Positions 6,780-61,124 of a stretch of DNA of 64,000 nucleotides are shown here, piece by piece. Positions within the stretch are counted from its first letter, which is position 1. The number at the start of each line of letters is the position of its first letter. The position numbers and the translations under genes are program-made. The DNA is from an uncultured Nitrospiraceae bacterium (GTDB lineage Bacteria; Nitrospirota; Nitrospiria; Nitrospirales; Nitrospiraceae), in assembly GCA_963846575.1 (NCBI GenBank), contig CAWJWJ010000002.1, forward strand, positions 1,408,001 to 1,472,000, given 5' to 3'. The notes below the pieces were generated by a model. It was not told the origin of the DNA, ran no database searches, and saw nothing but the letters and a program-made list of their open reading frames with translations.

Positions 6780-6824
6780 CCAGGGTTTCATCCAGGTCAC
6801 GAGTCCTGTTCAGAAGAGTACGCT
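6780..6824 (+). promoter_or_regulatory. degenerate CTAG-N8-CTAG box plus -10 for the NtrC-type gene
   Basis: CCAGGGTTTCATCCAG 6780-6795, 23-nt gap, TACGCT 6819-6824. Confidence 0.5.
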
Positions 6825-6879
6825 GCAGGGGTGTTGGAGTCTAATCGGGATATTCCTTTCACACCCATAGGTAGAGACC

Positions 6880-8241
6880 ATGACATCTTCACGTCCCCGT
6901 ATTCTGATTGTTGAGGACCATGCCGCCACGGTCGCCGTCCTGGAAGAGATCCTGTCGCAGGAGGGCTACGAGATCCTGTCCGCTCCGGACGCGATGGCCG
7001 CGCAGGCCCAATTGAGACAGTCGTCCGTGGATCTCATTCTGACCGACCTCAATCTTCCTCACATGGACGGGTTAACGCTCCTGACGCAGCTCCGTTCCCA
7101 GACGCCGGAGATCCCGGTCGTCTTGATGACGGCTTTCGGCTCACTTAAGTCCGCCGTGGATGGATTGAAGGCGGGAGCCTTCGACTATTTGAGCAAACCT
7201 TTCACGGGAGATGAAGTGCGGATGGTGGCCAGGCGCGCGTTGGAGCAGCGGCAGAGTTCCATGCCGAATCATGCCGCGAGCCAACGCCCGGCGGCACGCT
7301 CCTCATTCGATAATCTGATCGGCAGCAGTCCCGCGATGGTACACGTCTACAAGGCCGTGGCCCGGGTCGCGCAATCGGACACGACCGTTCTCTTACAAGG
7401 AGAAAGCGGAACCGGCAAGGAGCTCATAGCCAGGGCTATCCACGACAATGGTCCCCGGAGCGGGGGACCCTTTATCACCGTCGATGGTGCGGCCCTGGCG
7501 GAAACCCTGCTCGAATCCGAGTTGTTCGGCCACGAGCGAGGGTCGTTCACAGGAGCCATTTCGACTCGAAAGGGATTGCTGGAACGGGCGCACCTCGGCA
7601 CCTGTTTTCTGGACGAAGTGGCAGATCTGTCCCCCGCTTTGCAGGGCAAACTGCTGCGCGTGATCCAGGAAAAAGAAATCCGCCGGGTCGGGAGCAATGC
7701 ATCGACTATGCTGGATGTGCGGATCATCGCTGCCTCAAAAACCCCTCTTGAGCCGATGGTCAAGGCGGGGACCTTTCGCGAGGATCTGTACTACCGCATG
7801 AACGTGGTGACGATCGACCTTCCGCCGCTCCGCGAACGGGCCGAGGATATCCCGCTTCTCGCGGACATGTTCGTTCGATCCTACGGGTCCAGAAAAACTC
7901 CGCCGGTGACGGAGATCTCTCCCGAGGCCATGCGGCTTCTCACCCAGTATTGGTGGCCTGGAAACGTCCGTGAATTGGAACATGCCATCGAGCGGGCCGT
8001 GGCGCTGAGTCCCTATTCGGTCATTTGCCCCGAGGATCTGCCTTCTGCGGTCAAGGAGCCTCGGCCTCAGACGGTCGCCCGGGCGCAAGGCTGGGTCACC
8101 CTCGAAGATCTGGAGCGCGACCACATTCTGCGCGTGCTGGATTCCCACGAGCGGGACCTGGGTCGGTCGGCCGTGGTGCTGGGTATCCATCGTAAGACAC
8201 TGTTGCGCAAACTCCGTCAGTATGGAATGGCCGCCGGCTAA
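6880..8241 (+). CDS. sigma54-dependent response regulator (REC-AAA+-HTH_8, NtrC/ZraR/AtoC family)
   Basis: REC domain, GESGTGKE Walker A, GSFTGA loop, FLDEV, WPGNVREL, Fis-type HTH. Confidence 0.95.
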   Translation: MTSSRPRILIVEDHAATVAVLEEILSQEGYEILSAPDAMAAQAQLRQSSVDLILTDLNLPHMDGLTLLTQLRSQTPEIPVVLMTAFGSLKSAVDGLKAGAFDYLSKPFTGDEVRMVARRALEQRQSSMPNHAASQRPAARSSFDNLIGSSPAMVHVYKAVARVAQSDTTVLLQGESGTGKELIARAIHDNGPRSGGPFITVDGAALAETLLESELFGHERGSFTGAISTRKGLLERAHLGTCFLDEVADLSPALQGKLLRVIQEKEIRRVGSNASTMLDVRIIAASKTPLEPMVKAGTFREDLYYRMNVVTIDLPPLRERAEDIPLLADMFVRSYGSRKTPPVTEISPEAMRLLTQYWWPGNVRELEHAIERAVALSPYSVICPEDLPSAVKEPRPQTVARAQGWVTLEDLERDHILRVLDSHERDLGRSAVVLGIHRKTLLRKLRQYGMAAG

Positions 8242-8284
8242 GCACAGGTCGGCGGCCATTCCCTCTGATTCGGTCAGACCTTCT

Positions 8285-9124
8285 TCATCGTGCTGCAGGC
8301 GGAATGGCCACATCGATGACTTTGTTGTCGGTGTCAACCAGCAGGATCACCGCGTCGCCTTTTCGGAGTCCCGCCATCTTCGATTGAATGACTTCGCGTA
8401 CCTCGTAAGGCTTTTCGGCCCCCGCGCCGGTACGTATCGTGATCCGATTGGATTCAAGGGGTGTGGCCACGGTGCCGTCGACCTGTTTATGCGCACCCTT
8501 GATCGGTGATTTGCGCTCCGCATTCCGCTCGGCGTCTTTGACGGCCTTGATATTGGCAAACCCCACGTCCGCAATCTGATTCGTTTCGTCCAGGAGAAAC
8601 ACGGCCGTCACTCCCACCGGGACCGCTGCCATCTTGCTTCGCGCTTGTGAGCGGATCGTATATGATTGTTCCTTGCCTTCGGCTTTGATCACGGCCGTCT
8701 CCTGGCCGATAGTCAGGTTCTGAGCGAGTTCGCCTCTGATGACTGTATGGGCGCTCGATTCCCCGTCGACCGGATGATAATCCACTAACAGGTTTTCCGC
8801 ATTCAGGACCACGATCAGCTCATCGCCCTCCTTGATGGTCTCGAACCCCTTCTGCCGCGCCTGCTTGAGCGGAAGGAAGCGCGGTTGCACTTCGCCTATA
8901 TCGAGCTTGATCTGGTCGGAGGTGATCGCTTCAACCTTTCCCAAGACCGACCGATTCGCCTTCAACATTTCTTGGGCGTCTCGACGAAGTTCCTCCTTCT
9001 GCTGCTTCTGTGCTTCGGCCCATGCAGGAGAGGAAAACTGACCGAGTGCCAGCAGTGATGCGGCAAAGATCGTCGTACCTCGAATCGTCGTGGTGAATAA
9101 CAAAGATTTTGGTTTCTGACTCAT
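8285..9124 (-). CDS. exported protein with three repeated beta (OB-like) modules
   Basis: Signal peptide (PAWA-E); repeats ending ..GD.xIxxxxxxN.xxDx three times. Confidence 0.8.
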   Translation of the reverse strand: MSQKPKSLLFTTTIRGTTIFAASLLALGQFSSPAWAEAQKQQKEELRRDAQEMLKANRSVLGKVEAITSDQIKLDIGEVQPRFLPLKQARQKGFETIKEGDELIVVLNAENLLVDYHPVDGESSAHTVIRGELAQNLTIGQETAVIKAEGKEQSYTIRSQARSKMAAVPVGVTAVFLLDETNQIADVGFANIKAVKDAERNAERKSPIKGAHKQVDGTVATPLESNRITIRTGAGAEKPYEVREVIQSKMAGLRKGDAVILLVDTDNKVIDVAIPPAAR

Positions 9125-9188
9125 GCTTGCTCCTCCTGGTTCAAAACGCCTGTTTGATTCCGTATGACTTCGCGTACAGTCAAACTAA

Positions 9189-9204
9189 AGCAAGACACGG
9201 GCCT
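9189..9204 (-). promoter_or_regulatory. putative sigma54 -24/-12 promoter
   Basis: Minus strand AGGCCCG-TGTC-TTGCT, correct GG-N10-GC spacing, about 65 nt before the ATG at 9124. Confidence 0.45.
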
Positions 9205-10226: not shown

Positions 10227-10249
10227 CAATCATCGGAAGGACGAGAACC

Positions 10250-13722: not shown

Positions 13723-14256
13723 ATGAAAGATAAAGCGGTCTTTTTCGCGACAGCGGGCATGGTCTGGTGCGACGACCTCTCTTCCGGTGTGCCCTCGGCG
13801 ACCCTCAGTCCGGGGGAGTGGAAGGCGCTGCGCCTCCTGACGCTTGCCGGCTATAACATCGTACTGTTTACGCCTGAAAAAACGACCGTCTATGCGGACG
13901 TCCAGGATGTCCGTCTGACCGACGGAGGGGTGATCAGGTCCGCTCGCCCGGTCGCGCAGCGGCGGGATGCACTGAGAAGACGCGTTAGGCCGTTGCTCCA
14001 GGCAACGGCAACGTTGCAGATCGATTTGACTCACTCCTGGATGGTCGGCGACAGGCTCGATGGTATCGAAGCAGGCCGCATCGTGGGGTGTAAAACGGTC
14101 TTGCTGACCGATGGAAGTGAGCGTGACTGGGATATGACGGCCACACGGTGGCCGGACCTCATCGCGGGGGACTTGTGGGAAATCGCCTGTTTGATTGTGA
14201 TGTCCGACGGGTCGTCCGTCGAGGGCCTTTCAGGCAGCCTCGAAGACGATTGCTAG
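13723..14256 (+). CDS. degenerate HAD IIIA (GmhB/HisB-N-like) protein
   Basis: IDLTHSWMVGDRLDGIEAGRIVGCKTVL motif is retained; motif I reads FFATAG. Confidence 0.75.
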   Translation: MKDKAVFFATAGMVWCDDLSSGVPSATLSPGEWKALRLLTLAGYNIVLFTPEKTTVYADVQDVRLTDGGVIRSARPVAQRRDALRRRVRPLLQATATLQIDLTHSWMVGDRLDGIEAGRIVGCKTVLLTDGSERDWDMTATRWPDLIAGDLWEIACLIVMSDGSSVEGLSGSLEDDC

Positions 14257-14312
14257 TCCGGGCCGCTCACGTGGGCACGCTTCTCCGAACGATCGCGAAC
14301 CCCCATAGACTC

Positions 14313-14534
14313 TTAGCGTACGAGGCCCACGACGCCGATTCGAATCCGGGCACCTCGCTTGTGCCATTCCTCTTTGGGATCCCGCTCGCGGCCCCGGTTC
14401 TCGCAAATAAGCTGGTCAACGATCTCTCCACAAGCAAAACATCTCCAGGCGGCTGGTTGCTGGTTGACTGGCCCGCCTCCCCAATCGCGGAGTTCGACAG
14501 GAAACATCAGACTGCGGCATCGTTGACACTGCAT
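14313..14534 (-). CDS. small zinc-finger protein
   Basis: CQRC...WRCFACGEIVD; GAGGTG RBS. Confidence 0.75.
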   Translation of the reverse strand: MQCQRCRSLMFPVELRDWGGGPVNQQPAAWRCFACGEIVDQLICENRGRERDPKEEWHKRGARIRIGVVGLVR

Positions 14535-14560
14535 AAGTTCACCTCTTGTTTGGTTAACCC

Positions 14561-14681
14561 ATCGTAGAAAGTGCCTCCTTCATTTGGCACTAGGATCTAC
14601 CCTAGTAATCATGACCTCGCTACGTGGGACAGCCTCAAGGGCTCTACCTAGTGGGAAAACGGGCGGCCGACTCCGTACATT
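14561..14681. promoter_or_regulatory. two CTAG boxes with divergent -10s
   Basis: CTAGGATCTACCCTAG 14590-14605 (minus TACGAT 14561-14566, gap 23); CAAGGGCTCTACCTAG 14636-14651 (plus TACATT 14676-14681, gap 24). Confidence 0.75.
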
Positions 14682-14887: not shown

Positions 14888-16576
14888 ATGTGGTGCATCA
14901 CCGCACGAGTACGATTCATGATCGTCTGTCTCTTGCCCCTGTTGTTCAGCGTCGGATGCAGCGAGATACCAGCACCCACCCCGGCGATCTCGACGGCGAA
15001 CGAACAACATGTTCGTTTTCTGCACCTGGCCGACATGCATGCCCAGTTGGAGGAACATTGGGAGTTCTTTCCGGAGCATCCGGAACAACTCCGCCGTATG
15101 GGCGGCTTCGCGCGTATCAGATCTGTTTTGGAGCAGAAGCGCCGGGAATTTCCTGGTGCGGTGTTCACGATGGATGGCGGGGATACCTTTCAGGGCTCCG
15201 CCCTCGCGGCATGGACCGAGGGCGCCGCCGTTATTCCTCCGCTCAACGCGCTGGGGATCGATGTCGGAGTGCCTGGCAATTGGGATGTCGTCTATGGTCC
15301 GGCTGTCTTTCGGAAGTTATACGCGGACGTAAATTTCACCGTGGTCTGTTACAACTTCCATGAGACGGGGAGCGGCGCGCGTCTCTTTCCTCCGGCCACC
15401 GTGCTGGAACGAAACGGGGTGCGGGTGGCTTTCGTCGGAGTGACCGATCCTACTACCACCGTCCGGCAACCTCCGGCCGAAGTCGTGGGTCTCGACTCGA
15501 CCCGGATGGAGGGACTGCGCCGGTTCGTGCAGGACCTTCGCGAACGGGAACGCCCCGATCTCGTCGTGCTCGTCGACCATACGGGACTGGCGCCCTCCGT
15601 CCAACTGGCCCAGGACATTCCGGAGTTTGACATCGTCTTCAGCGGGCACACCCATGAACGGGTGTATGAACCGATCCATGTCGGGCGGACGATCGTGGTC
15701 GAGCCGGGATCGATGGGGTCGTTTCTCGGACAGCTGGATGTCACGCTGCAGGAAGGCCGCATCACCGCCTCGCGTTTCGAGCTCGTCGAGATTGATGCCA
15801 CGCGTTTTCCTGAAGACCAGCAGGTCAAGGAGCTCATTCAAGCGGCAAAGGCTCCCTTCGAGTCACGTTTGCGGGAGGTGGTCGGCGAAACCAGGAACAT
15901 CGTGAGGCGGTACGACGTGCTCGATGCCACGATGGACAATCTCATTGCCGATGCGGTTCGCGAGGCTACCGCGAGCGAGATCGCCTTTACGAACGGATTT
16001 CGTTTCTCGCCGCCGATTCCTCCCGGCCCGATCACCGAGGCCGATCTCTGGAACATGTTGCCGCTGGACGCGCGGCTCAAAACCGGCCGGGTGACCGGCA
16101 AGCAGCTTGGGGAATATCTGGAGCAGGAAATGGAGCTCGTGTTTGCCCAGGATCCCTTGGCCCTGTCAGGAGGTTGGGGCCCGCGCCCCTCCGGGCTGGA
16201 GATGCAATTCATTGCGAAGGCTCAGAAGGGGGAGCGGGTGCAGCACGTGCGGATCCACGGGATCCCGCTGGAAGCGGAACGGTCATACACGATCGGTGGT
16301 TGCGAGCGAGACGGAGAGCCCATGGACATCATCTGCCGGTTGCGAGGAGTACAGGACCCGCAGTATGTTCCGGGCACGATTCACAGCGTATTGAAAGCGT
16401 ATCTCACACGGCATTCCCCCCTTTCGCTTGAACCTGAACGACGGGTCCGGGCCTTAGACCTTCCTGCTCCACTGTGGTCGCAGTACGGCACCTTACAAAA
16501 CCTATGGTCGATTCCAGGCAATGCCTCCGCGGTGAAAGTACCGGGTGTCCCTTCAACGAAGTCTCAGGGGCAGTAG
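14888..16576 (+). CDS. SoxB-like / 5'-nucleotidase-family metallophosphoesterase, probable lipoprotein
   Basis: DMHAQ, GGFARI, DGGDTFQGS, GNWD, SGHTHE, NGFRF; lipobox-like FSVGC; start may be 14888 or 14918. Confidence 0.85.
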   Translation: MWCITARVRFMIVCLLPLLFSVGCSEIPAPTPAISTANEQHVRFLHLADMHAQLEEHWEFFPEHPEQLRRMGGFARIRSVLEQKRREFPGAVFTMDGGDTFQGSALAAWTEGAAVIPPLNALGIDVGVPGNWDVVYGPAVFRKLYADVNFTVVCYNFHETGSGARLFPPATVLERNGVRVAFVGVTDPTTTVRQPPAEVVGLDSTRMEGLRRFVQDLRERERPDLVVLVDHTGLAPSVQLAQDIPEFDIVFSGHTHERVYEPIHVGRTIVVEPGSMGSFLGQLDVTLQEGRITASRFELVEIDATRFPEDQQVKELIQAAKAPFESRLREVVGETRNIVRRYDVLDATMDNLIADAVREATASEIAFTNGFRFSPPIPPGPITEADLWNMLPLDARLKTGRVTGKQLGEYLEQEMELVFAQDPLALSGGWGPRPSGLEMQFIAKAQKGERVQHVRIHGIPLEAERSYTIGGCERDGEPMDIICRLRGVQDPQYVPGTIHSVLKAYLTRHSPLSLEPERRVRALDLPAPLWSQYGTLQNLWSIPGNASAVKVPGVPSTKSQGQ

Positions 16577-21585: not shown

Positions 21586-21642
21586 ATTGGATCTTTCCTA
21601 GGGATTTTGCCAGTAGTGCCTCTCTGCCGATTTTTGTAAGTT
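21586..21642 (+). promoter_or_regulatory. overlapping CTAG boxes plus -10 for the CBM48-glgC-treY operon
   Basis: CTAGGGATTTTGCCAG 21598-21613 (preceded by ATTGGATCTTTCCTAG), gap 23, TAAGTT 21637-21642. Confidence 0.65.
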
Positions 21643-22232: not shown

Positions 22233-22304
22233 GCCGCGCGACGAAAAGTCCTGCCGGTCATGGCAAGGCGGCCGGTAGATGGTTCACGTGCAATGAGGAT
22301 GCAC

Positions 22305-23564: not shown

Positions 23565-23595
23565 CTGACACAGCCGATCCAACTTGTGAGACTGC

Positions 23596-49876: not shown

Positions 49877-51835
49877 TCACGAATGAATCGGGCAGTGATT
49901 GACGATAACCTCGTACAGCTGACTTGCCGCCGACTCCTTGGTCAAAAACGCGGCGGCACCGGCGTCAGTCATGGCCACTTCGACCTGTGGATCGTTTCTC
50001 ACCGAAATGCCGATAATGGTCAGGGAGCTTATCTCCCGGCTGAGGATGCGGGTGGCCTCCACGCCGTCGAGGAGCGGCAGATTGACGTCCATCACCACCA
50101 CATCCGGACGGAGTGAACGGGCCATGACGACCGCGTCCTGGCCGTCAGCTGCTTCGCCCACGACATCCAGGTCCTCATAACTGTCCAGAATACTGCGGAG
50201 CCCCTGCCTGACCATGGCATGGTCGTCCACCAGTAACACGCGCAGGCACCGGTCGACTGATTTGGAGACGACCGCCTTGGTTCCGGCATGGGTTGTCGCC
50301 GGCTGCGGCGATCCGATGCAGTTCTGCGCGAGCGGGAGCCGCAGAATGGCCAGGGTGCCCCTGCCGGGAGTGGAGGACAGTTCGCATTCGCCGCCCAAGA
50401 GCTCCATGCGTTCCCGAATGCTCAGCAAACCGAACTTTGGCTCCATCGCATGTGAACTGGACAGAGTGGAGACGTCGAAGCCTCGGCCGTGGTCCTCTAC
50501 GCAAATCCACAGGACCTGTTCATCATCAATGTTGACCGTGATCGTGGCCTTGTCCGTACGCGCATGTTTCACGATGTTGAACAGTAGTTCACGCACCGAT
50601 TGAAACAACAACACCGCCTGGTCGTCGGAGAGCGTGAAGGTGCCGGGTCCGGGCTGTACGGTGACGTCGAGCGAATGCTGCTTCATTTGATCGCCTAACC
50701 AGACCAGGGATTTCGACAGCCCGAACTGGTACAGCACATGGGGGCTTAACTCGGCCACCAGCGAGCGGGTGTAGGTCAGTGCCTGGTCGAGCATCTGATC
50801 GATCTTGGCGAGTGATCCGGCAAGGGCCTGGTCGCGCGACCGCGAGATGGTTTGGGACAGCGTGATCCGGCTGGCCACGACCAATTGAGCGAGGTAATCA
50901 TGGAGGTCGGTGGCCAGTCTCCGGCGTTCCCGTTGTTCGGTCAACGTCAGTTCGGATGCCAGGGCTCGCAATCGTTGGTGAGAGCAGCGGAGCTCGTTTG
51001 TTCTCTCGATCAGCCGCTGTTCGGCATCGGCAGCCAGGTCTTGGAGTTGTTTCTCCGCCCGTTTCCGGTCGGTGATCTCAACGAGCACGGTGACGCCGCC
51101 GACCACTTTCCCGGTTGCATCACAGAGCGGGGTCGGATAGGGGAGGACCGGCACACGCGTTCCGTCCGGCCGTTCGACCAGCAACTCCACCCCGCGGATC
51201 GCTTGATTCTGCCTGAGCGAGACGGCCATCGGACAATCATCGATCGGCAGCGGCGTGCCGTCAGGCCGATAGAGACGCCATGATCCGCACCACTGTGCTT
51301 CTCCTAATTGAGGGCGGCAGCCCCAGAGGTCGATGGCGGCCTGATTGTAATGATTGATGCGGCCCTCGGCGTCTGTCGTATAGACGGCTGCAGGGAGGGC
51401 CTCAACCAACTCTTTAAACTGCTGTTCGGTCCCCTTGTGCTGGGAAATATCACGGGCGACCTTAGAGGCTCCGATGATCTGACCTGTCCGATCCTTCAGC
51501 GGAGACACCGTCAAAGAAATGTCTGCCAGCGTGCCGTCTTTCCGTTGCCACACCGTCTCATAATGGTCGATGTTGACACCTGCGTGTAAACAGGCCGGAA
51601 CGCCTGTTTCTCCTCGACGCCGGTCCTGCGGGATCAAACGCTGCACCGGTTGGCCGATCATTTCATCGGCCGTGTACCCGAACAGGCGTTCCGCGCCCTT
51701 GTTCCAGCTCAGCACCACTCCCTGCAAGTCTCTGGAAATGATTGCATCGTCGGAAGATTCCACGATCGCCGCCGCTTGCGCCAGGGCAAAATCGTGATTA
51801 TGAGCCAACGATGGAAAGGCGGCATGGTCAGTCAT
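49877..51835 (-). CDS. cytoplasmic hybrid histidine kinase: 2 PAS, HisKA_3, HATPase, REC
   Basis: SSDDAII PAS; ERRRLATDLHDYLAQ; DHGRGF; MDVNLP. Confidence 0.93.
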   Translation of the reverse strand: MTDHAAFPSLAHNHDFALAQAAAIVESSDDAIISRDLQGVVLSWNKGAERLFGYTADEMIGQPVQRLIPQDRRRGETGVPACLHAGVNIDHYETVWQRKDGTLADISLTVSPLKDRTGQIIGASKVARDISQHKGTEQQFKELVEALPAAVYTTDAEGRINHYNQAAIDLWGCRPQLGEAQWCGSWRLYRPDGTPLPIDDCPMAVSLRQNQAIRGVELLVERPDGTRVPVLPYPTPLCDATGKVVGGVTVLVEITDRKRAEKQLQDLAADAEQRLIERTNELRCSHQRLRALASELTLTEQRERRRLATDLHDYLAQLVVASRITLSQTISRSRDQALAGSLAKIDQMLDQALTYTRSLVAELSPHVLYQFGLSKSLVWLGDQMKQHSLDVTVQPGPGTFTLSDDQAVLLFQSVRELLFNIVKHARTDKATITVNIDDEQVLWICVEDHGRGFDVSTLSSSHAMEPKFGLLSIRERMELLGGECELSSTPGRGTLAILRLPLAQNCIGSPQPATTHAGTKAVVSKSVDRCLRVLLVDDHAMVRQGLRSILDSYEDLDVVGEAADGQDAVVMARSLRPDVVVMDVNLPLLDGVEATRILSREISSLTIIGISVRNDPQVEVAMTDAGAAAFLTKESAASQLYEVIVNHCPIHS

Positions 51836-51914: not shown

Positions 51915-52022
51915 AACATAGTGTGGATGTTGGTTCGCGTACAACTAGGCAAAACGCTAGCACGGATTTTCAGCCATTCCAGGGGTATACCTAGTGATGT
52001 GTCATTCGAAACCCTGTACTCT
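51915..52022. promoter_or_regulatory. two CTAG boxes with divergent -10s
   Basis: CTAGGCAAAACGCTAG 51945-51960 (minus TATGTT 51915-51920, gap 24); CCAGGGGTATACCTAG 51979-51994 (plus TACTCT 52017-52022, gap 22). Confidence 0.75.
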
Positions 52023-52079
52023 GACAATGAACCTTATTCGGTTCGGAACGGCCTTAGGGTCACACGAAAGGAGAGCGCG

Positions 52080-52472
52080 ATGAAGTCTGGCGGAACGGCA
52101 CGGGGCACCTCTCATGGACATCAGCGTGACGGCGCAGGGAGCCTGGTCCAGACTCCGTCACCGTCCGCGACAGAGTCTCAGCAGTCACCGTTGCATTCTT
52201 CGCCGATTATCGACGTGTCCGAGTCTGATGGTGCGTTCAATGTCTACGCTGACTTTTCCGGAGTCAGTGACCGCATGGAGGCCGGTGAACCGACGATTGA
52301 ATTTGCGCGGCAGGGAGTTGTTCTAAAACGGGGACCGGTCGAACGGTACATACCGATCCCTACTGATTGCGAAATCGACCGGGCCAAAGTTTCCACTGCC
52401 GGGGGTATCGTTCGGATTTCCGTGCCCACGGCAGACTTGGGACATCGCTGGCGATCCATCGTCATGTGGTGA
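52080..52472 (+). CDS. divergent Hsp20/alpha-crystallin-like protein
   Basis: IDVSESDGAFNVYADFSGV..ERYIPIP..AKVSTAGGIVRISVP. Confidence 0.7.
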   Translation: MKSGGTARGTSHGHQRDGAGSLVQTPSPSATESQQSPLHSSPIIDVSESDGAFNVYADFSGVSDRMEAGEPTIEFARQGVVLKRGPVERYIPIPTDCEIDRAKVSTAGGIVRISVPTADLGHRWRSIVMW

Positions 52473-52672: not shown

Positions 52673-54769
52673 CTACCGGCTGACTGACGATTCGCGAGTG
52701 TTCCCGGCGACCTGAATGGCACGGTAGAGGTCTTCGATGGCGGCATCTTTTTGCAGAAAGTCGATGGCTCCGGCCTGTTGCATGGCCGTTCGCACGTGTT
52801 CTTCCTTCTGCACCGATAGGCCGATGACCCTCACTGAGGGAAATGTGCTTTTGATACGCCGCGTCGCCTCGATCCCGTCCATTTTCGGCATGTTGACATC
52901 CATCAGGATGATATCCGGCTTGGTCTGCCCCGTTAACCGCATGGCCTCGATTCCATTCGCGGCCTCTCCGACGACATGAATATTTGCATATTCGTTCAGC
53001 GCGCCCCGCAGCCCTTGACGCACCATGGCATGGTCGTCGGCCAGGAGGAGCCGGATCTTGGGCTGAGCCGGGAGAAGGGCGTTCGGCGGGCCGGATTCGC
53101 ATATGGCGGCGTTGTCTGAGAGGGTGGGTGTATTCCGGGAAGGCTGCGAAGATCCCCCGGTGAGTGGTATCTGCGGCTCGACCGGCAGGGGAAGAATGAG
53201 CGTCGCCTGCGTTCCCTGCCCCGGCGTGGAGACGAGTTCGAAGCGTCCGCCGAGCGCGAGCATGCGTTCGCGTATGCTGAACAATCCGAACCCCGGATGA
53301 GACGTGCCGCCAGGTGCGGAGGCGAGGGACACGGAGTCGAACCCGACCCCCTTGTCGCGGACGTGAATACGTAGTTCGTCTTGGCTGCGCTCCAGCAGAA
53401 CGGATGCCCGGTCTATGTGCGCATGTTTGGCCGCATTCATCAATAACTCCCGCACGGACTGGAAGAGCAGCACGAGGCGGTCGGCTGGGAGTCGGAGATC
53501 GTCGGTGCGGGGCAGGTCTGCGGTGATGATCATGCCGTACCGTTTCATTTGCTCCGCGAGCCAGGAGAAGGCGGCGCACAGCCCGAACTCTTGTAAGACG
53601 GGGGGAGCCAGATCGGCGACCAGGGTCCTCGTGTAGGTCAGGGACTGGATGAGCACGTCATCGATTTCTTTGAGAAGAGCATGCGTGGCTGGTGGAAGAT
53701 CGTGACTTTTCAAAGCCTGGGCGAGCTTCAGTTTTCCCAACACCAGCAACTGGGCCAGATGGTCGTGCAACTCCGTCGCCAACCGCTGGCGTTCACGTTG
53801 TTCGGTCAGGTTCAGCTCGGTGGCGAGCGCCCGTAACCGCTCCTGTGACTGCAGCAGTTCGGCGGTTTTCTGCGTGACGGCCCGTTCCAGATCGACGCTC
53901 CACCGCTGTAGGCGATCTGCAGCTTCCTTGCTGTCGGTCATATCGAATCCGGCACCCACGTAGCCCATGAATTCCTCGCGCGCGGAGCTGCTCGGCATGC
54001 CGACCGAGCGGATCCAGCGGTATTCACCGTCATGGCGTCGGAAACGACAGGAGGCCTCGAACCGCGCACGTTGCTTGACGGAGGCGTCGTACAGGGCGAG
54101 GTATTGGCTGTAATCGTCGGGATGGATAAACTGCGCCCAGGCGAGCTGTTCTCCCTGGTGAGGGTGCTGCGAGCCAAGAAACTCCAAATAGGCCTGATTG
54201 AGAAACTCGTACCCGTTCGCCCCGTTCATCCAGATGAATACCGGCGCGCTGTCGGCGAGGGTGCGGAAGCGCTCTTCGCTTTCGCGCAGGCGTCGGTCGG
54301 CCTCTTCGCGCTCCTGCAGCAGGCGGGCCTTTTCCTCGGCCACCGCGAGCATGTCATCCCGCTGCCGGGCCAGTTCCGCGCGTTGTTGGTACAGTTCGAG
54401 AAAGATTCCCGCCTTGCTCTGCAATACATGCGGCTCGATCGGCTTATAGAGAAAATCCACCGCCCCTGCGGTATAGCCCTGGAAGCGCCGAAGATTATCC
54501 TGTGGACCCGCGGTCAAAAAAATGATCGGCACATGCCGGCTGCGTTGAGAGCCTCGCATGAGCTCGGCCAGCTCGAATCCATCCATGATCGGCATCTGGA
54601 CGTCGATGAATGCCAGGGCAATATCGTGATGTAAGAGGAGTTCTAACGCGTCCCGTCCGGAACGGGCCTCCAGCATTTCGACGTCGTCCCGGCGCAGGAG
54701 CTGCCTCAAGGCCAACAAATTGGGCTCGTTGTCGTCGACCAGCAGAATTTTGGCGCAGCTGCCTCGCAT
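52673..54769 (-). CDS. hybrid histidine kinase: REC, PAS, HisKA_3, HATPase, REC
   Basis: N-terminal VDD..DVQMP; ERQRLATELHDHLAQ; C-terminal ADDH..MDVNMP. Confidence 0.93.
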   Translation of the reverse strand: MRGSCAKILLVDDNEPNLLALRQLLRRDDVEMLEARSGRDALELLLHHDIALAFIDVQMPIMDGFELAELMRGSQRSRHVPIIFLTAGPQDNLRRFQGYTAGAVDFLYKPIEPHVLQSKAGIFLELYQQRAELARQRDDMLAVAEEKARLLQEREEADRRLRESEERFRTLADSAPVFIWMNGANGYEFLNQAYLEFLGSQHPHQGEQLAWAQFIHPDDYSQYLALYDASVKQRARFEASCRFRRHDGEYRWIRSVGMPSSSAREEFMGYVGAGFDMTDSKEAADRLQRWSVDLERAVTQKTAELLQSQERLRALATELNLTEQRERQRLATELHDHLAQLLVLGKLKLAQALKSHDLPPATHALLKEIDDVLIQSLTYTRTLVADLAPPVLQEFGLCAAFSWLAEQMKRYGMIITADLPRTDDLRLPADRLVLLFQSVRELLMNAAKHAHIDRASVLLERSQDELRIHVRDKGVGFDSVSLASAPGGTSHPGFGLFSIRERMLALGGRFELVSTPGQGTQATLILPLPVEPQIPLTGGSSQPSRNTPTLSDNAAICESGPPNALLPAQPKIRLLLADDHAMVRQGLRGALNEYANIHVVGEAANGIEAMRLTGQTKPDIILMDVNMPKMDGIEATRRIKSTFPSVRVIGLSVQKEEHVRTAMQQAGAIDFLQKDAAIEDLYRAIQVAGNTRESSVSR

Positions 54770-54778: not shown

Positions 54779-55375
54779 TTAGGCCGTTCGCTGATGTAAG
54801 AGTGTCGATATGGCGTCTAAACTCATGGGCCGCGCCCTCACCGATGCCGCGAGCGCAGCATCGGGCATGACCCTCGCCTCGGCTGATCGGGGAGTCTGAA
54901 CCCACGCCGCGCCTCCGGCGTCGCAGACGGCCCGCACGCCCCGGGCCCCGTCATGGTTGGCTCCCGTGAGAATCACGGCGAGCAATCTGTCGCCGTACGT
55001 GTCCGCGGCGGACTCGAATAACACGTCGATGGAGGGGCGTGAATAATTCACCGGTGCGTCGCTCGAAAGGGAGAGGTATCGGCCGCGCTCCACCAGCACA
55101 TGGTAGTCGGGAGGGGCGAAATACACCGTGCTTCGGAGGATGGGTTCTTTGTCTTCGGCTTCCTTCACCGTGAGGCGGCAGGTCGATCGAAAGAGGTTCG
55201 CGATGCTGCTGCCCTGTTTGCGGGCCGGAATATGGACCGCGATGAGGATCGGTAAGGGATAATCTTCCGGCAATGACGGGAGAATCTGCGACAGCGAGGA
55301 GACGGCGCCGGCCGACCCGCCGATCACGACTGCGTCGATATTGCACAACGCCATCTCCTGGGCGGCGGCCTTCAT
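54779..55375 (-). CDS. cheB: CheB-type methylesterase, catalytic domain only
   Basis: GGSAG, VH, YSRPSIDVLFES, LTGANHDG. Confidence 0.92.
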   Translation of the reverse strand: MKAAAQEMALCNIDAVVIGGSAGAVSSLSQILPSLPEDYPLPILIAVHIPARKQGSSIANLFRSTCRLTVKEAEDKEPILRSTVYFAPPDYHVLVERGRYLSLSSDAPVNYSRPSIDVLFESAADTYGDRLLAVILTGANHDGARGVRAVCDAGGAAWVQTPRSAEARVMPDAALAASVRARPMSLDAISTLLHQRTA

Positions 55376-56211
55376 GCCTCGCCTCGTTTCTGGTAGATCC
55401 GTTCCTCAGGCAGAAATTCAGCAAATGCGTCGCGATGCGCATTGAACCGCAAACTTTCTCTGGCTCCTGTGCCCAGAAATCCTTTGCGCACCAGGGTCTC
55501 CTTGAACAGTCCCACCGCCCGATCCTGCAGCGGCCGATCGAAGTAGATCAGCACATTACGGCAGGACACGAGGTGCATTTCCGCGAAGACGGCATCGCAG
55601 ACCAGGCTGTGATCGGAGAACACCGTGCGCCGGATGAGGGTCTTGTCGAACCGCGCGGCGTGATAGGCGGCGGTGTAGTACTCGGACAGCGAGACGCGGC
55701 CTCCCGAGAGGCGGTGGTTCTTGGTGAATAGCGCGACGCGCGGCAAATCAAACACCCCGGCCTTGGCCTTTTCGAGTGCCTCGACATTGATGTCGGTCGC
55801 ATAGAATATCGTGCGGCTTTCGAGTCCTTCCTCCCGAAACAGGATGGCGAGCGAATACAGTTCCTCCCCTGTGCTGCAGCCGGCCACCCAGACTTTCAAC
55901 GATGGATAGGTCTTCAAATGCGGGATGACCTTCTCGCGTAGCGCCAGAAAATAGCTCGGATCGCGGAACATGTCGCTGACCTGGACCGTGAGAAACCCCA
56001 GCAGCTGCGGAAACACGGTCGGATCGTGGAGCACCTTCTCCTGCAATGCCGAGAGAGTCCGGCAGCCGAGCCGCTCGCTCGCAAGGACGAGCCGGCGTTT
56101 GAGCGAGGCGAGGGAATATCCACGAAAGTCATAGTGGTATCTGGAAAAAATCGCTTCGAGCAATAATTCCAATTCGGTGTCCTCGGTCTTGGTCATCGCG
56201 GGCTGAATCAT
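55372..56211 (-). CDS. cheR: CheR-type protein-glutamate methyltransferase
   Basis: MFRDP, WVAGCSTGEE, ATDIN, CRNVLIYF; ATGA coupling on both sides. Confidence 0.94.
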   Translation of the reverse strand: MIQPAMTKTEDTELELLLEAIFSRYHYDFRGYSLASLKRRLVLASERLGCRTLSALQEKVLHDPTVFPQLLGFLTVQVSDMFRDPSYFLALREKVIPHLKTYPSLKVWVAGCSTGEELYSLAILFREEGLESRTIFYATDINVEALEKAKAGVFDLPRVALFTKNHRLSGGRVSLSEYYTAAYHAARFDKTLIRRTVFSDHSLVCDAVFAEMHLVSCRNVLIYFDRPLQDRAVGLFKETLVRKGFLGTGARESLRFNAHRDAFAEFLPEERIYQKRGEA

Positions 56212-59200
56212 CGGGGCATCCACACGCGCACCAGCGAAAGCAGTTGATCGACGTGGAGGGGCTTGGCCATGTAGTCGTTGGCCCCTGCGGCCAGAGCCTG
56301 TTCCTGGTCGTGTTTCATGGCCTTGGCGGTGAGTGCGATGATGGGGAGCTTCTGCCATTGGGGGCGGTCGCGGATGGCGCGCATCGCGGTCAGGCCGTCC
56401 ATCTCCGGCATCATGATATCCATGAGCACCAGATCGACGGGCCGTTCGTGATCCTGCACCGGTTGCTCCAGCAATGCGAGACATTCGCGGCCATTGCGGG
56501 CGATCTCGACGGTCGCGCCGTGGGGCTCCAGCACGGCACTCAGCGCGAAAATGTTCCGTACGTCATCTTCTACGATCAGAATGCGCCGTCCTTCCAGGGC
56601 GGCATTGCGGCTGCGCGCTTTTTCGAGCATGGCCTGTTGTTCGGGCGGGAGCGTGGAGACGACCTGATGGAGGAACAGGGTGACTTCATCCAGGAGCCGT
56701 TCCGGGGATTTGGCCCCCTTGATGATGATGGAATGAGAATATTTGCGCAGTCGTTGCTCCTCATCGGGAGACAGGTCGCGGCCCGTATACACGATCACCG
56801 GTGGAAACGAGTACTGGTCTTCCCGCTTCAGCGTCTCGAGGAGCGCGAAGCCGGTGGCATCCGGCAGGGTCAGATCCAGAACCATGCAGTCGAATGTTTT
56901 TTCCCCGAGTTCCTTCAGGCAGTCGGCGGCGCGTTCGACCGCAATCGTTTCCACGTCCGGTGAGCCGAGCAACTGTTGCAGGCTGTCCCGCTGTGTGGGG
57001 TCATCCTCCACGATGAGCACCCGCCTGGGTTTCTGGGTGAGGCGGCTTTCAAACTGTTGGAACGCCTGAATGAGTTGCTCGCGCTTGACCGGCTTTAGGA
57101 TGTAGCCCACCGCGCCGAGGGACAGCGCCGTCTGCATGTGGTCGTGGGCCGAGACTACATGCACGGGAATGTGCCGGGTTCTGGCGTCCAGTTTCAAACG
57201 GTCGATCACCGACAGTCCCGAGTGGTCTGGCAAACCGAGATCCAGCAGCACGGCGCTCGGCGAATAGCGGACGGCGAGGGCCAGCGCTTCGGCCGCGGTC
57301 TGTCCGACAATCACCTGGAAGTGGAGTTCGTGGGCCAGGTCGGAGAGAATGCGCACGAAGGTCTCGTCATCCTCGACGATCAGGATGACCCGTCGTTGAC
57401 CCGTCAGCTTGTCCCGGTCGTCGTCCATTCCTGCTGTCGCGGGAACGATGGCGTGCTCGTCCGCCTGGTCCATCCGTCGGGGCAGAGGGACAGGCGTAGC
57501 AGCCTGGCGGGAGGGGACCGTGCCGAGGCGCCTCGGAGGGGGTGCCACCGGGGTATGAATTTCCGGCAGGGTCAGGGTGAAGGTGCTGCCTTGCCCCACG
57601 ACGCTGCTAAGGTGGATCTCGCCTCCCAACAAGCGCATGAATTCGCGTGAGATCGACAGTCCCAATCCCGTTCCACCGTATCTGCGATTGGTCGTCCCGT
57701 CTGCCTGACAAAACGGTTCAAAAATCAGCTCCCGTTGCTCTTCCGGGATCCCGATCCCCGTGTCGCGCACCGCAAACATGACGCGGCCGTCCGCCGCCCG
57801 GGAGATGTCCAGCGATACCTCGCCTTGCTCCGTAAACTTAATGGCATTCGAAAGGAGGTTCTTGAGCACCTGCTCGAGGCGCTGCCAGTCGGTTTCTATG
57901 TATTCCGGCACCTCGGGGGTTCGATGCAAGGTCAGACGGAGCCCCTTGTGTTCCGCCACCGGCTGAAAGAGTGCCTGGAGACTATCGACCAGACGCGACA
58001 CCGGGACATGGCGGAGGGAAAGATCCAGGCGTCCCGCCTCCACCTTGGCGAGATCGAGGACGTCGTCGATGAGCGCGAGCAGGTCGTTGCCTGCGGCCTC
58101 GATGGTGGTGATGGACTTGACCTGCTCGGGCGTGAGGTTGCCATCGGGATTATCTGCCAGCAGCTTCGCCAGAATGAGAGACGAGTTCAGAGGGGTTCGC
58201 ATTTCGTGCGACATATTGGCGAGAAACTCCGACTTGTACCGGCTCGCGCGCTCGAGCTGGCGAGCCTGTGTCTCAAGCGCGCTATTGGCGCCATTGAGCT
58301 CTTCCTTCTGGGTCTCGAGTATCTGGGCCTGTTCCTCAAGCTGCGCATTGATCTGCTCCAATTCGGCCTGCTGTTGCTCGAGATGCGAATGGGACGTCTT
58401 CAGCGCGCTGCTCTGCTCCTCCAATTCCTCGTTGGCCACCCGCAGCTCCTCGCTTTGGACCTGCAGCTCCTCGGCCTGCCGCTGGGTCTCTTCGAGCAGG
58501 TCTTGCAAGCGGGTGCGATACTGAGCCGAACGTACCGCGATGGCGATGGATTCCGAGACCCGGGTCATAAGATCGATGTCGGCCTGTTCAATCCGTTGAA
58601 AGAATCCCAGTTCCAGAACCGCTTTGACGGTTCCGTCTGCAGAGACCGGTGCGATCATGAGATGGCGTGGCGCGCTGTGGCCCAGACCGGAGCCGATCGT
58701 GAAATACTGCTCCGGGACATCGTGCAGGACGCAGAGCCGTTGGTCTTTGACGGTCTGGCCCAATAGGCCCTCGCCCGGCTCAAATCGGGGGGAAAGGTGC
58801 GTCGTGCTGCTCACCGCATGGGTTGTGACGAGGCGATAACCGGTCCCGTCCTCGACATAGATCGCTGCGGCCTGGGCGTCCAGGCAGCGGGCGACACAAG
58901 CCAGCACATTCTGGCCGAGCGTGCACAGGTCCTGTTCACCGATCATGCGTTCGCTAAGCACAGTCTGGGCCGACTGAATCCTCTCCTGCTCACGCATGGC
59001 GATCTTATTGCGGATGAACTGATGTCCAAAGACAGCCAATGCCGCGGCGGTGATCATTCCGATGATACGGTTCACCTGCGCGAAAACCGGATCCGCCCCC
59101 AGCGGACTGAGGAAGTATCCGATGATGGTGAGCAGACTGACCCCTGCCGCCACAGCCATGGGAGCGGACGTTTGCCACGTGAGATACGACAAGACGACCG

Positions 59201-59327
59201 GCACGAGATAGAGTGCCCAGACCGCAATGCCATGGGGCGTATAACAGTCGATGAGAAACACCGCCGCCGTGGACAGGACGATGGAGGTGTAAATCAGGGC
59301 TGTGGAGTCGCGTTGAGAGCCTGTCAT
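56208..59327 (-). CDS. CfcA-like hybrid kinase: TM sensor, GAF, E/Q coiled coil, HisKA, HATPase, 3 REC
   Basis: EELQVQSEELRVANEELEEQ; FLANMSHEMRTP; GGTGLGL; three REC domains. Confidence 0.93.
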   Translation of the reverse strand: MTGSQRDSTALIYTSIVLSTAAVFLIDCYTPHGIAVWALYLVPVVLSYLTWQTSAPMAVAAGVSLLTIIGYFLSPLGADPVFAQVNRIIGMITAAALAVFGHQFIRNKIAMREQERIQSAQTVLSERMIGEQDLCTLGQNVLACVARCLDAQAAAIYVEDGTGYRLVTTHAVSSTTHLSPRFEPGEGLLGQTVKDQRLCVLHDVPEQYFTIGSGLGHSAPRHLMIAPVSADGTVKAVLELGFFQRIEQADIDLMTRVSESIAIAVRSAQYRTRLQDLLEETQRQAEELQVQSEELRVANEELEEQSSALKTSHSHLEQQQAELEQINAQLEEQAQILETQKEELNGANSALETQARQLERASRYKSEFLANMSHEMRTPLNSSLILAKLLADNPDGNLTPEQVKSITTIEAAGNDLLALIDDVLDLAKVEAGRLDLSLRHVPVSRLVDSLQALFQPVAEHKGLRLTLHRTPEVPEYIETDWQRLEQVLKNLLSNAIKFTEQGEVSLDISRAADGRVMFAVRDTGIGIPEEQRELIFEPFCQADGTTNRRYGGTGLGLSISREFMRLLGGEIHLSSVVGQGSTFTLTLPEIHTPVAPPPRRLGTVPSRQAATPVPLPRRMDQADEHAIVPATAGMDDDRDKLTGQRRVILIVEDDETFVRILSDLAHELHFQVIVGQTAAEALALAVRYSPSAVLLDLGLPDHSGLSVIDRLKLDARTRHIPVHVVSAHDHMQTALSLGAVGYILKPVKREQLIQAFQQFESRLTQKPRRVLIVEDDPTQRDSLQQLLGSPDVETIAVERAADCLKELGEKTFDCMVLDLTLPDATGFALLETLKREDQYSFPPVIVYTGRDLSPDEEQRLRKYSHSIIIKGAKSPERLLDEVTLFLHQVVSTLPPEQQAMLEKARSRNAALEGRRILIVEDDVRNIFALSAVLEPHGATVEIARNGRECLALLEQPVQDHERPVDLVLMDIMMPEMDGLTAMRAIRDRPQWQKLPIIALTAKAMKHDQEQALAAGANDYMAKPLHVDQLLSLVRVWMPR

Positions 59328-59781: not shown

Positions 59782-59827
59782 CTTGTACAGTGTTTCACAT
59801 GAGGCGACACACTAGCGAAACCCCTAG
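59782..59827 (-). promoter_or_regulatory. perfect CTAG box upstream of the kinase-cheR-cheB operon
   Basis: CTAGCGAAACCCCTAG 59812-59827; minus TACAAG 59782-59787, gap 24. Confidence 0.7.
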
Positions 59828-59869
59828 TTTGTTCCATTTCTGAACCAGGGTGTACCGGAGGACGGGGAG

Positions 59870-60250
59870 CTATCTGGGAAGGGTCGGGGGCGGTAGTTCA
59901 GGCGCGGCGTTATCCATGACCCGAACGGCACGGCTCTGCTTGTCCAGTTTGAGCGTAATACGCTGGCCGGGGGACAAATTGATGAAGAGCTCTGGCTTCA
60001 CGATTTGAAAGGCCACCTGCTTACCCAGATCGGTGGTCAAGGTCCCTTTTTTTTCCGTCACGTTGACGCTGGCCAACGTACCGGAGACCGTTTCGTACTC
60101 CTCGCTGGAGGTTTCGGCATGCACCGCGGGGAGGCGGTTTATCTGGAGTGCCATGAATGTGCCGAGCAACGTTCCTCCCAATATGGCTCCCATAACGAGC
60201 CCGCGAAGGGCGGATGCGATCCTGTCGGCGGTGGGGTGTTCGAAGATCAT
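59870..60250 (-). CDS. membrane-anchored/exported OB-like protein
   Basis: AAGGAG RBS; TM then VSGTLASVN..LSPGQRITL. Confidence 0.7.
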   Translation of the reverse strand: MIFEHPTADRIASALRGLVMGAILGGTLLGTFMALQINRLPAVHAETSSEEYETVSGTLASVNVTEKKGTLTTDLGKQVAFQIVKPELFINLSPGQRITLKLDKQSRAVRVMDNAAPELPPPTLPR

Positions 60251-60266
60251 GAGATGCTCCTTTTCG

Positions 60267-60554
60267 TTATCGCCCTTCGCCCTGTGAGGGGGGTGGCGAA
60301 CCGGGGCCATCGGGTGAACCGGGCATAAGCGGCGGTTCCGGCGTCGGGGACGGCACCGGCTGGGGATCGGTAGGCTTGGGAGCCGTGGGGCCAGGTCCGG
60401 GCTGGGGCATGGGGGCCGGCGCCTGTCCCAGGGCCGGGATGCCGCCAGTGACAACGATCCCGAAGAAACAGAGGGCAACCGCGGACACCTGAAACCGGAC
60501 GCTCCCGTCTCTGGTCGTCCCAGGCGGCTCAGGGCTTGCCTGCCTGGCGTTCAT
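60267..60554 (-). CDS. proline-rich small protein with a hydrophobic segment
   Basis: ATGA overlap with the Csp stop; PQPGPGPTAPKPTDPQP. Confidence 0.55.
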   Translation of the reverse strand: MNARQASPEPPGTTRDGSVRFQVSAVALCFFGIVVTGGIPALGQAPAPMPQPGPGPTAPKPTDPQPVPSPTPEPPLMPGSPDGPGSPPPSQGEGR

Positions 60555-60976
60555 CGCTGACTCGCGCCCGACGCGGGGGGCACCGCCTCAACGACCATTT
60601 TGTGGCAGATGTCCGCGCATCTCCGGCATTCTTTGGCGCAGTCGCCACAGAGCGGATGGTGCGGCGCATGTTCTTCGCAGACGCCGGCGCACACTTCGCA
60701 GATCTCCGCGCACAAAGCGCAGAGGCGGACTGAGAATGCGGATTGCCGCCCCATCCATTGTGCCGCAAGGAGACAGATGTCCGAGCATTCACGACAGAGC
60801 CGTATGCAACGGGCCATCAAGTCCTGATCGGCCTTTCCCCCCTGATGCGACATGCCGATCATGTCATCGCCGCAGGTATTACAGATACGTGCGCAAGCCA
60901 GACAGGCCTCGATACATTGGTCCACATGTGGTCCCATCGAGGGTTTTGTCGCCTGAGACATCTTGTCCGTCATCAC
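60551..60976 (-). CDS. four-helix Cys-rich copper storage protein (Csp3/DUF326-like)
   Basis: 19 Cys in CxxxC/CxxC periodicity; no signal peptide. Confidence 0.92.
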   Translation of the reverse strand: MMTDKMSQATKPSMGPHVDQCIEACLACARICNTCGDDMIGMSHQGGKADQDLMARCIRLCRECSDICLLAAQWMGRQSAFSVRLCALCAEICEVCAGVCEEHAPHHPLCGDCAKECRRCADICHKMVVEAVPPASGASQR

Positions 60977-61014
60977 TCACCTCCACCTTGTGATTCATGA
61001 CCAATCATGTGGCG

Positions 61015-61124
61015 ACTGTAGCGCGTGATGCTGAGAGCCACTACTAGGAATACCTCTTGGCGCCGTGGCCTGGCCGCCTAGGGGAGTGACTAGCTGTGCA
61101 GTAGATCAGGGAATCCGCTAAGGT
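61015..61124. promoter_or_regulatory. two CTAG boxes with divergent -10s
   Basis: CTAGGAATACCTCTTG 61044-61059 (minus TACAGT 61015-61020, gap 23); CTAGGGGAGTGACTAG 61078-61093 (plus TAAGGT 61119-61124, gap 25). Confidence 0.75.

Follow-up and report, generated by a model that had tools for sequence, protein, structure and literature searches.

The stretch analysed here, 64,000 nucleotides from an uncultured Nitrospiraceae bacterium, is referred to as the window and corresponds to positions 1408001-1472000 of contig C2 in the 4.2-Mb assembly that contains it (G000). It carries genes of protective type, two convergent response regulator genes of the NarL family (NarL-1 and NarL-2) and hybrid histidine kinase genes, and a 16-bp palindrome, CTAG-N8-CTAG (the box), recurs between them. 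The box was found to be a real, promoter-linked element conserved across genera, and the regulon that it marks is probably to be assigned, on the sequence comparisons given below, to the NarL pair together with a clade of orphan kinases.

Genes of G000 were called with our own codon-model script (3796 genes), in which starts and small genes may be wrong. Boxes were scored with an iterated, symmetric matrix at a site threshold of 12 bits, and the same matrix with a shifted spacer served as control. The features of the window are given below with their matrix scores and with the -10-like hexamer (TAnnnT), whose start is counted in nt past the box.

6780-6795, + strand: weak box upstream of the NtrC-type regulator gene 6880-8241 (9.3 bits, TACGCT at +24)
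14590-14605, - strand: perfect box, no called gene downstream on its TAnnnT side (18.0 bits, TACGAT at 24)
14636-14651, + strand: box upstream of the metallophosphoesterase/5'-nucleotidase gene 14918-16576 (13.1 bits, TACATT at 25)
21598-21613, + strand: box upstream of CBM48-glgC-treY, 21879-26493 (16.3 bits, TAAGTT at 24; GlgC and TreY above cut-off)
26720-26735, + strand: perfect box upstream of hemerythrin and PRC-barrel genes, 26843-28520 (16.4 bits, no A..T match at 23-25)
30066-30081, no strand assigned: perfect box between the divergent GT4 glycosyltransferase (28844-29932, - strand) and NDH-2-like (30176-31441, + strand) genes (19.5 bits; TATGAT at 24 on the - strand, GATGAT at 25 on the + strand)
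31870-31885, - strand: perfect box upstream of the small hypothetical gene 31484-31807 (20.1 bits, TAGACT at 24)
35980-35995, - strand: box upstream of the DUF3108 gene 35093-35944 (15.5 bits, TAGGAT at 24)
36127-36142, no strand assigned: perfect box between the DUF3108 gene and the 431-aa gene preceding NarL-1 (16.3 bits, TATTTT at 23 on the - strand)
37775-38461, + strand: NarL-1, receiver (REC) and LuxR helix-turn-helix (HTH) domains, 228 aa (Pfam)
38610-39266, - strand: NarL-2, REC and LuxR HTH domains, 218 aa, convergent with NarL-1, less conserved and usually with boxes in front of it (Pfam)
39437-39478, no strand assigned: two boxes (39437 and 39463) between NarL-2 and the divergent Fe/Mn SOD-like gene 39630-40280 (15.0 and 15.1 bits; for 39463, TAGCGT at 24 on the + strand)
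40460-40475, + strand: box upstream of a hypothetical and a CBS-domain gene, 40598-41382 (13.1 bits; CAGCAT at 24 on the + strand, TACCGT at 23 on the - strand)
41454-41469, + strand: box upstream of a small open reading frame (ORF) and the ferritin-like gene 41789-42328 (17.7 bits, TAGGCT at 24)
42762-42777, + strand: box upstream of two CsbD-like genes, 43120-43359 and 43512-43880 (17.5 bits, no A..T match at 23-25)
45968-46135, + strand: DUF1328 small membrane protein (Pfam, above cut-off), which we take to be a stress marker
46149-49691, - strand: orphan-clade hybrid kinase, PAS repeats-HisKA_3-HATPase-REC (Pfam and clade tree)
49877-51835, - strand: orphan-clade hybrid kinase, PAS-HisKA_3-HATPase-REC, preceded by a box (Pfam and clade tree)
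51945-51994, no strand assigned: two boxes, 51945 toward the kinase genes (- strand) and 51979 toward a small ORF (+ strand) (15.1 and 17.5 bits; TATGTT at 25 on the - strand, TACTCT at 23 on the + strand)
52673-54769, - strand: orphan-clade hybrid kinase, REC-PAS-HisKA_3-HATPase-REC (Pfam and clade tree)
54779-59327, - strand: CheB, CheR and a GAF-HisKA-HATPase-3xREC kinase, in the same direction as the kinase gene 52673-54769 and a probable upstream input module (Pfam and gene calls)
59812-59827, no strand assigned: perfect box 484 nt upstream of the 3xREC kinase gene (21.0 bits, no A..T match at 23-25)
61044-61093, no strand assigned: two boxes, 61044 toward the Csp-like Cys-rich gene 60551-60976 (- strand) and 61078 upstream of a PLD-VTT gene (13.7 and 13.1 bits; for 61044, TACAGT at 24 on the - strand)

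The 18 16-mers of the original prediction were each recovered at their positions and in their mismatch classes, and one strong site, 35980, was added. Site 6780 scored below the threshold, and 14590 is a perfect box whose TAnnnT side points away from any called gene. This promoter-like side faces about 330 nt (14256-14590) devoid of called genes, where a small RNA or a small protein is possible; an Rfam scan of the 64-kb window returned 0 matches. The view that all copies are intergenic agreed with the gene calls, although 14636, 30066, 51945 and 51979 lie inside the longest possible ORFs and are intergenic only under the start choice made. For the small ORF 52071-52472, labelled hsp20 in the original prediction, no Pfam match was obtained at E 0.05, and the Csp-like protein matched the Csp1 model below its cut-off.

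The spacing of eight nucleotides was far commoner than any other. Across the genome, 37 perfect copies of CTAG-N8-CTAG were counted compared with 0-12 for every other spacer from 0 to 60, and 36 of the 37 were intergenic by our gene calls. The box is the top palindromic 4-mer dyad of intergenic DNA (36 observed against 3.5 expected, Poisson about 1e-23). In the window, where spacers of 0-30 were counted, eight perfect copies were present and all other spacers gave zero except N22 (one) and N30 (three), both of which arise from neighbouring boxes. The consensus first proposed, CTAGG-N6-SCTAG, captured a real palindrome that is better written as aCTAGGGR-nn-YCCCTAGt according to the matrix. At 12 bits the matrix retrieved 114 intergenic matches versus 3-18 in the spacer-shift controls, whereas coding DNA showed no excess (24 versus 14-27). 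Box density was 28 per 100 kb in the window and 2.7 genome-wide. A second dyad was seen in the intergenic DNA of G000, GTATC-N6-GATAC (TATC-N6-GATA, 25 observed against 4.3 expected), suggesting another regulon.

As had been anticipated from bacterial genomes in general, CTAG is under-represented and is in fact the most depleted tetramer of this genome (observed/expected 0.65). Its density is four times higher in intergenic than in coding DNA, and CTAG is an insertion target of IS5-type elements, so the boxes could in principle be footprints of insertion sequences, by-products of TAG stop codons or chance. This origin has a negligible probability and was rejected on controls for spacer length and orientation: no spacer but 8 is enriched, the inner GG/CC is conserved, none of the 37 perfect sites touches a called stop codon, and the box keeps a fixed, strand-biased distance to a -10 element.

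That distance was evident from the orientations facing a gene. Among 134 of them, TAnnnT started 23, 24 or 25 nt past the box in 11, 35 and 13 cases (59 in total), while any other offset between 10 and 44 gave at most 6 (mean 1.3); in orientations facing away from genes the hexamer was found at 23-25 nt in 9 of 96. It occurs at this distance on one side of 13 of the 18 originally named window sites, being missing at 26720, 39437, 42762, 59812 and 61078. Taking the hexamer as -12 to -7, the spacing would place the box at about -51 to -36, centred at -43.5 ±1 and abutting the -35 region. The -35 hexamer after the box is poorly conserved (T, T, T/G at modest frequency), a layout that would suit an activator standing in for a weak -35 element.

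Both regulators belong to the NarL/FixJ family by Pfam and alignment, each combining a receiver with the acidic pocket, phospho-Asp, Thr and Lys and a C-terminal LuxR/GerE HTH. Relatives of NarL-1 in Nitrospira genomes are 84-96% identical (17 of 20 loci), which places the window in Nitrospira. The two genes stand tail to tail in 37 of 39 Nitrospiraceae loci, and the other two loci hold NarL-1 alone, near the locus end. In a phylogenetic tree from which 13 near-identical loci were left out, NarL-1 and NarL-2 formed separate clades (support 100/99 and 100/100) with matching branching. Outside Nitrospiraceae, a draw of 201 genomes from the phylum included 165 non-f1 genomes, and none of these had a NarL-1 orthologue at E 1e-76 or better.

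Co-occurrence was assessed in 161 Nitrospiraceae genomes by counting perfect boxes against control spacers 11-15 and recording the best NarL-1 match. With presence set at E 1e-76 or better, genomes with NarL-1 (n = 65) had a median of 22 boxes over a background of 3.2, versus 4 over 2.6 in those without (n = 96), and the contrast held separately within the genera g1, g7, g15 and g23. Re-scoring with a hidden Markov model revealed an intact pair in G071, which had fallen below the threshold, giving 66 genomes with and 95 without. It also placed NarL-2 in G107 (91% complete), in which NarL-1 was not found. An excess of eight or more boxes was then found in 62 of 66 and 7 of 95, respectively. The promoter architecture was conserved as well: 19 loci from other genera contained 76 matrix matches versus 1-6 in shifted controls, and 46 of the 76 carried TAnnnT at 23-25.

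The kinases follow the same distribution. Of 28 HisKA_3 kinases in G000, ten adjoin a NarL gene. A further 17 group in a single long-stemmed clade (support 87/88) that is set apart by the sequence following the phospho-His, and 15 of these end in a C-terminal receiver. Three of them lie in the window, and a query taken from one of these three separates the clade cleanly (16 matches at 6e-46 or better, the next at 2e-31). A box precedes the gene or operon of 10 of the 17, compared with 284 of 3796 genes overall. The clade occurs in 71 of the 161 genomes, namely 65 of 66 with NarL-1 and 6 of 95 without, at 1-18 copies each as counted from at most 19 scored candidates per genome. In favour of the pair as the partner of the box, G100 has six clade kinases and Ku yet lacks the pair, and its boxes number only 5 (background 2.8). 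HisKA_3-REC hybrids are also present in Chloroflexota, Planctomycetota and Acidobacteriota, where the matches carry generic family names only. HisKA_3 kinases pair with NarL-type regulators; since no kinase gene adjoins the pair and the clade has phospho-helix residues in common that imply a common target, convergence of the orphan kinases on the NarL pair is the simplest reading.

Two clade kinases stand beside genes of other signalling families. At L024:9789-10655 (G000 C1:220789), a box-preceded RsbR-like STAS gene starts a gene run that ends in the orphan-clade kinase C1:213771, possibly a stressosome wired into the box network. At L033:850-2364 (G000 C2:510850), an orphan-clade kinase directly follows a KaiC-like ATPase gene that has a strong box. 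A 227-aa HisKA_3 protein (G000 C2:1582251-1582934; L101:1251-1934), which keeps the phospho-His, has a degenerate ATPase domain and lies behind a MetOD1 gene and a PAS hybrid kinase, was considered as a missing phosphotransferase and dismissed as a core part, being present in only 4 of the 161 genomes. Hpt-domain matches at G000 C2:1081481 and C2:1680223 have identical scores and frame lengths and are perhaps a duplicated cheA-like segment.

The two regulators do not appear equivalent. HTH identity over 25 pairs was 0.77 for NarL-1 versus 0.62 for NarL-2, and a box with a -10 element stands in front of the NarL-2 gene in 7 of 20 cases versus 1 of 21 for NarL-1, which favours NarL-1 as the main activator and NarL-2 as a partner or feedback element. 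It was also considered whether the two act as an obligate heterodimer, in the manner of RcsA-RcsB or BldM-WhiI, with a fixed promoter polarity, both being needed phosphorylated or present. Their adjacent, convergent genes and matching trees would fit this, as would an asymmetry of the oriented sites, in which G at position 6 occurs in 54 distal versus 22 proximal halves (n = 62); non-palindromic boxes mark heterodimers in Streptomyces (PMC4125116). Nevertheless, the same asymmetry appeared in pair-less loci (10 versus 3 of 19, p 0.04, from a small, non-random set of 18 loci mostly picked by eye near a paralogue), so it is not specific to two regulators, provides no argument for a heterodimer and more likely reflects promoter geometry. 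Together with the lower conservation of NarL-2 and its box, which fit a feedback role, this makes an obligate heterodimer unlikely.

Several observations weigh against assigning the regulon to the NarL pair and the kinase clade. The recognition helix common to NarL-1 and NarL-2, K-T/A-I/V-E-F-H-K (K-T-I/V-E-F-H-K/R for NarL-1), is shared by four further G000 paralogues, whose orthologues carry the box beside their own genes. Pair-bearing genomes with few boxes exist (G071 with 6, G088 with 5 and G126 with 7, over backgrounds of 2.4, 1.4 and 3.2), as do pair-less genomes with many (G085 with 12, G006 with 15, G047 with 13, G120 with 14 and G162 with 19). The 161 genomes are kin, so the co-occurrence counts overstate independence, and a co-inherited island would yield the same counts whichever of its proteins binds. 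As for the promoters, 47 of 115 sites have TAnnnT at 23-25 on neither side. No phosphotransfer protein was found that would connect the hybrid kinases with the pair: the three small Hpt proteins of G000 are encoded elsewhere, and no standalone Hpt match falls within the island.

These points bear on a further alternative, in which the box is a shared code of all KTxEFHK NarL paralogues and a paralogue encoded outside the island is the main or a joint driver of the regulon, the pair only travelling with the targets. In 38 genomes chosen for lacking NarL-1, the box with its -10 element gave 58 matches, 11 of them in G107; of the remaining 47, at least 14 have a NarL paralogue carrying the KTVEFHK helix no more than 1.7 kb away, and such a paralogue was present in 15 of 18 pair-less loci inspected, most of which had been chosen for that adjacency. 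Helix and box are thereby linked without recourse to the island, which also indicates that the box is not private to the NarL pair. Pair-less genomes also keep a total excess (518 boxes versus 282 expected), and the 13 boxes of G047 come with three clade kinases. In contrast, the paralogues are present in pair-less genomes whose box counts are near background (median 4), and beside each paralogue stands a kinase of its own that falls in another HisKA_3 group. A regulon run by such a shared code is accordingly considered improbable, and the pair with its kinase clade is retained as the preferred assignment.

The paralogue-linked boxes have a recurrent arrangement. In many genomes (L081-L094, L099 and G000 C2:2433424), an operon of a kinase and a NarL paralogue is followed, 56-610 nt beyond its 3' end, by a box with a -10 element; the next gene encodes a lone receiver protein in several cases, and in G000 there is a stretch of about 1 kb with no called gene. 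Local clusters of strong, more symmetric boxes surround a KT(I/V)EFHK NarL gene in L020 (Acidobacteriaceae, 806-5400) and L097, together with genes for a HisKA_3 kinase, DUF892 and DUF308; an Acidobacteria locus holds four strong boxes round one NarL gene. A genome-wide regulon in Acidobacteria was unsupported, as the box with its -10 element was found in 24 of 151 genomes, mostly singly, and clustered only in G343 and G481.

About 100 promoters of G000 carry the box, concentrated in two gene islands. In the window the candidate targets are CBM48-glgC-treY, hemerythrin, PRC, GT4, NDH-2-like, SOD-like, CBS, ferritin-like, two CsbD, Csp-like, PLD-VTT and the signalling genes themselves. The window's island continues to about C2:1582000 with Ku, LigD-like, catalase-like and GlgX genes. 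Outside the window, 90 candidate genes were surveyed and five others skipped. Pfam matches among them included Ku, hemerythrin before a catalase-like gene, GlgX-like, TreS-like, GH15, YtxH, BON, CBS, DUF1328, DUF421, the release-factor family, S30AE, aldo-keto reductases, RsbR-like STAS, a KaiC-like ATPase and kinases. The second island, of stress type, spans G000 C2:2676000-2800000 with 19 boxes and TreS-like, release-factor family, DoxX and DUF421 genes.

A set comprising Ku, trehalose and glycogen metabolism, catalase, ferritin-like, CsbD and DUF1328 is typical of general stress regulons. All of these are found among the box targets, and Ku itself was present in 49 of 66 genomes with NarL-1 versus 5 of 95 without; the term general stress, taken from gene content, is a putative one. 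Against it, coverage is incomplete: immediately upstream of the window's SDR-cyclase-ADH operon, peroxiredoxin gene and treZ, no site reaches 10 bits, more than one third of the 90 outside targets lack a Pfam match, and some are not recognisable stress genes.

The original prediction had a NarL-type activator running the general stress response in place of the sigma factors that do so in other phyla. Its regulator gained weight from the fixed -10 spacing, the conservation across genera and the co-occurrence with the pair; it was weakened by the non-exclusive box and by an RpoS-like sigma factor in G000 (best match RpoS at 328 bits, below the 378.7 cut-off; no box upstream). Given that factor, the NarL system would work beside it rather than fill a gap left by its absence. 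C at -13 is the RpoS signature in E. coli, and no preference for it was seen here (G27, C13, A10, T9 of 59). The mark of this regulon is a palindrome upstream of TAnnnT, which sets it apart from RpoS-, SigB- and EcfG-type responses with a sigma factor as master. A response to one specific condition (hypoxia or energy starvation with DosR-like dormancy, or drying), perhaps with RpoS as polymerase partner, would agree with the PAS-rich kinases, the hemerythrin, CBS and ribosome-associated targets and the RpoS-like sigma factor. The 1 to 18 kinases per genome with differing input domains argue for several signals instead, the targets cover osmotic, oxidative, DNA-break and storage functions, and the base at -13 gives no hint of RpoS; we regard a single inducing condition as very improbable.

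We infer the following mechanism, with stress as the inducer. The sequence aCTAGGGR-nn-YCCCTAGt would be the operator of a NarL/FixJ-family activator at sigma-70-type promoters with a TAnnnT -10 and a poor -35 element. By analogy with RcsB, RNA polymerase would be recruited by a phosphorylated dimer of the regulator bound beside the -35 region. NarL-1 would most likely be the main binder, with NarL-2 as partner or feedback modulator, and the phosphate would most likely come from the orphan hybrid HisKA_3 clade, with its varied PAS/GAF/REC inputs and shared phospho-helix. The boxes in front of 10 of the 17 clade kinases would create positive feedback. The predicted output includes trehalose and glycogen metabolism, Ku, the catalase-linked hemerythrin, SOD-like, ferritin-like, CsbD, DUF1328, YtxH, BON, CBS and PLD proteins, ribosome-associated factors and many small proteins of no assigned function. 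In its widest form, which we put forward tentatively and at somewhat less than an even chance, Nitrospiraceae may possess a sigma-independent general stress response in which an expandable, lineage-specific orphan HisKA_3 clade feeds a two-regulator NarL output (maybe a heterodimer of two phosphorylatable proteins) acting on about 100 housekeeping-sigma promoters, the whole being gained or lost together within genera.

In soils and treatment plants, nitrite oxidation and comammox are driven by Nitrospira, for which our searches turned up neither a stress regulator nor an operator already described. The box, the two regulators, the kinase clade and the roughly 100 promoters would together make a candidate master switch. 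As a genomic marker, the box and pair divide each genus into strains that have the system (66 of 161 genomes) and strains that lack it, and this division predicts differing survival of starvation, drying or oxidative stress. The motif, the regulator pair and the kinase clade are apparently undescribed, no description having been found in full-text literature, a coverage that excludes most subscription papers. The activation mechanism is of a known kind; multi-kinase input to a two-regulator NarL output in Nitrospiraceae appears to be undescribed.

Known NarL-family systems offer partial parallels. Neither NarL-1 nor NarL-2 reaches any NCBIfam cut-off. RcsB reads the homodimer box TN(G/A)GA-N4-TC(T/C)NA through a recognition helix whose DNA-reading lysine is K180 (PMC7913699). 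This 14-bp box has the same register as TAGGR-N4-YCCTA here, sharing the T, G, C and A positions, with a fifth base that is A or G here and not a fixed A. The invariant K of the present helix presumably corresponds to that lysine. RcsB sites usually lie upstream of the -35 region (PMC5651002), and RcsB activates rprA, osmC and osmB (PMC4125116). The present box ends 23-25 nt before the -10 hexamer and, with start sites placed from that spacing, would likewise sit just upstream of the -35 region. The proteins are not RcsB orthologues (NF008098, 87.9 and 77.3 bits versus a cut-off of 235). Input here would come from a large clade of mostly PAS-bearing HisKA_3 hybrids instead of RcsF-IgaA-RcsC-RcsD, and the regulon consists of storage and protection genes in islands, whereas that of Rcs concerns capsule and motility.

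SsrB recognizes an 18-bp degenerate 7-4-7 palindrome with one half better conserved and is encoded on the island that it controls (PMC2837388). The form aCTAGGG-N4-CCCTAGt has the same 7-4-7 layout, a comparison of layout and not of bases. The second-best NCBIfam match, PRK15369, which we take to be SsrB, scored 162.9 and 154.7 bits versus 242, so neither protein is an orthologue; SsrA-SsrB has one kinase and virulence targets in Salmonella. NreC of staphylococci is a NarL-family regulator that binds a GC-rich palindrome and raises transcription (PMC8139620, PMC5694512). The original prediction had given its site as TAGGG-N4-CCCTA; these sources speak of a GC-rich palindrome only, and the motif was not confirmed. 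NreABC differs in its oxygen/nitrate respiration regulon and single Fe-S kinase, and no NreC model was among the best 25 NCBIfam matches of the two proteins.

Two other systems offer further comparisons. DosR/DevR, which we take to be the structure match 3c3w, is likewise an activator of the NarL family; it is served by more than one kinase, and its stress and dormancy targets lie in clusters. It has a box of different length and two heme kinases in place of up to 18 PAS hybrids, and no target set rich in universal stress proteins was seen here. In PhyR-NepR-EcfG of Alphaproteobacteria, many orphan kinases of one subfamily act on one regulator, and partner switching frees an extracytoplasmic function sigma factor. 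Orphan kinases of one subfamily directed at one regulator, with similar target genes, would be the shared traits; here a DNA-binding activator of sigma-70-type promoters is the proposed output, and the kinases belong to HisKA_3 instead of HWE/HisKA_2. If true, the multi-kinase input would mean that a general stress network has evolved convergently with another kind of protein as its output, and the sigma-independent response would add a further architecture beside RpoS, SigB and PhyR-EcfG.

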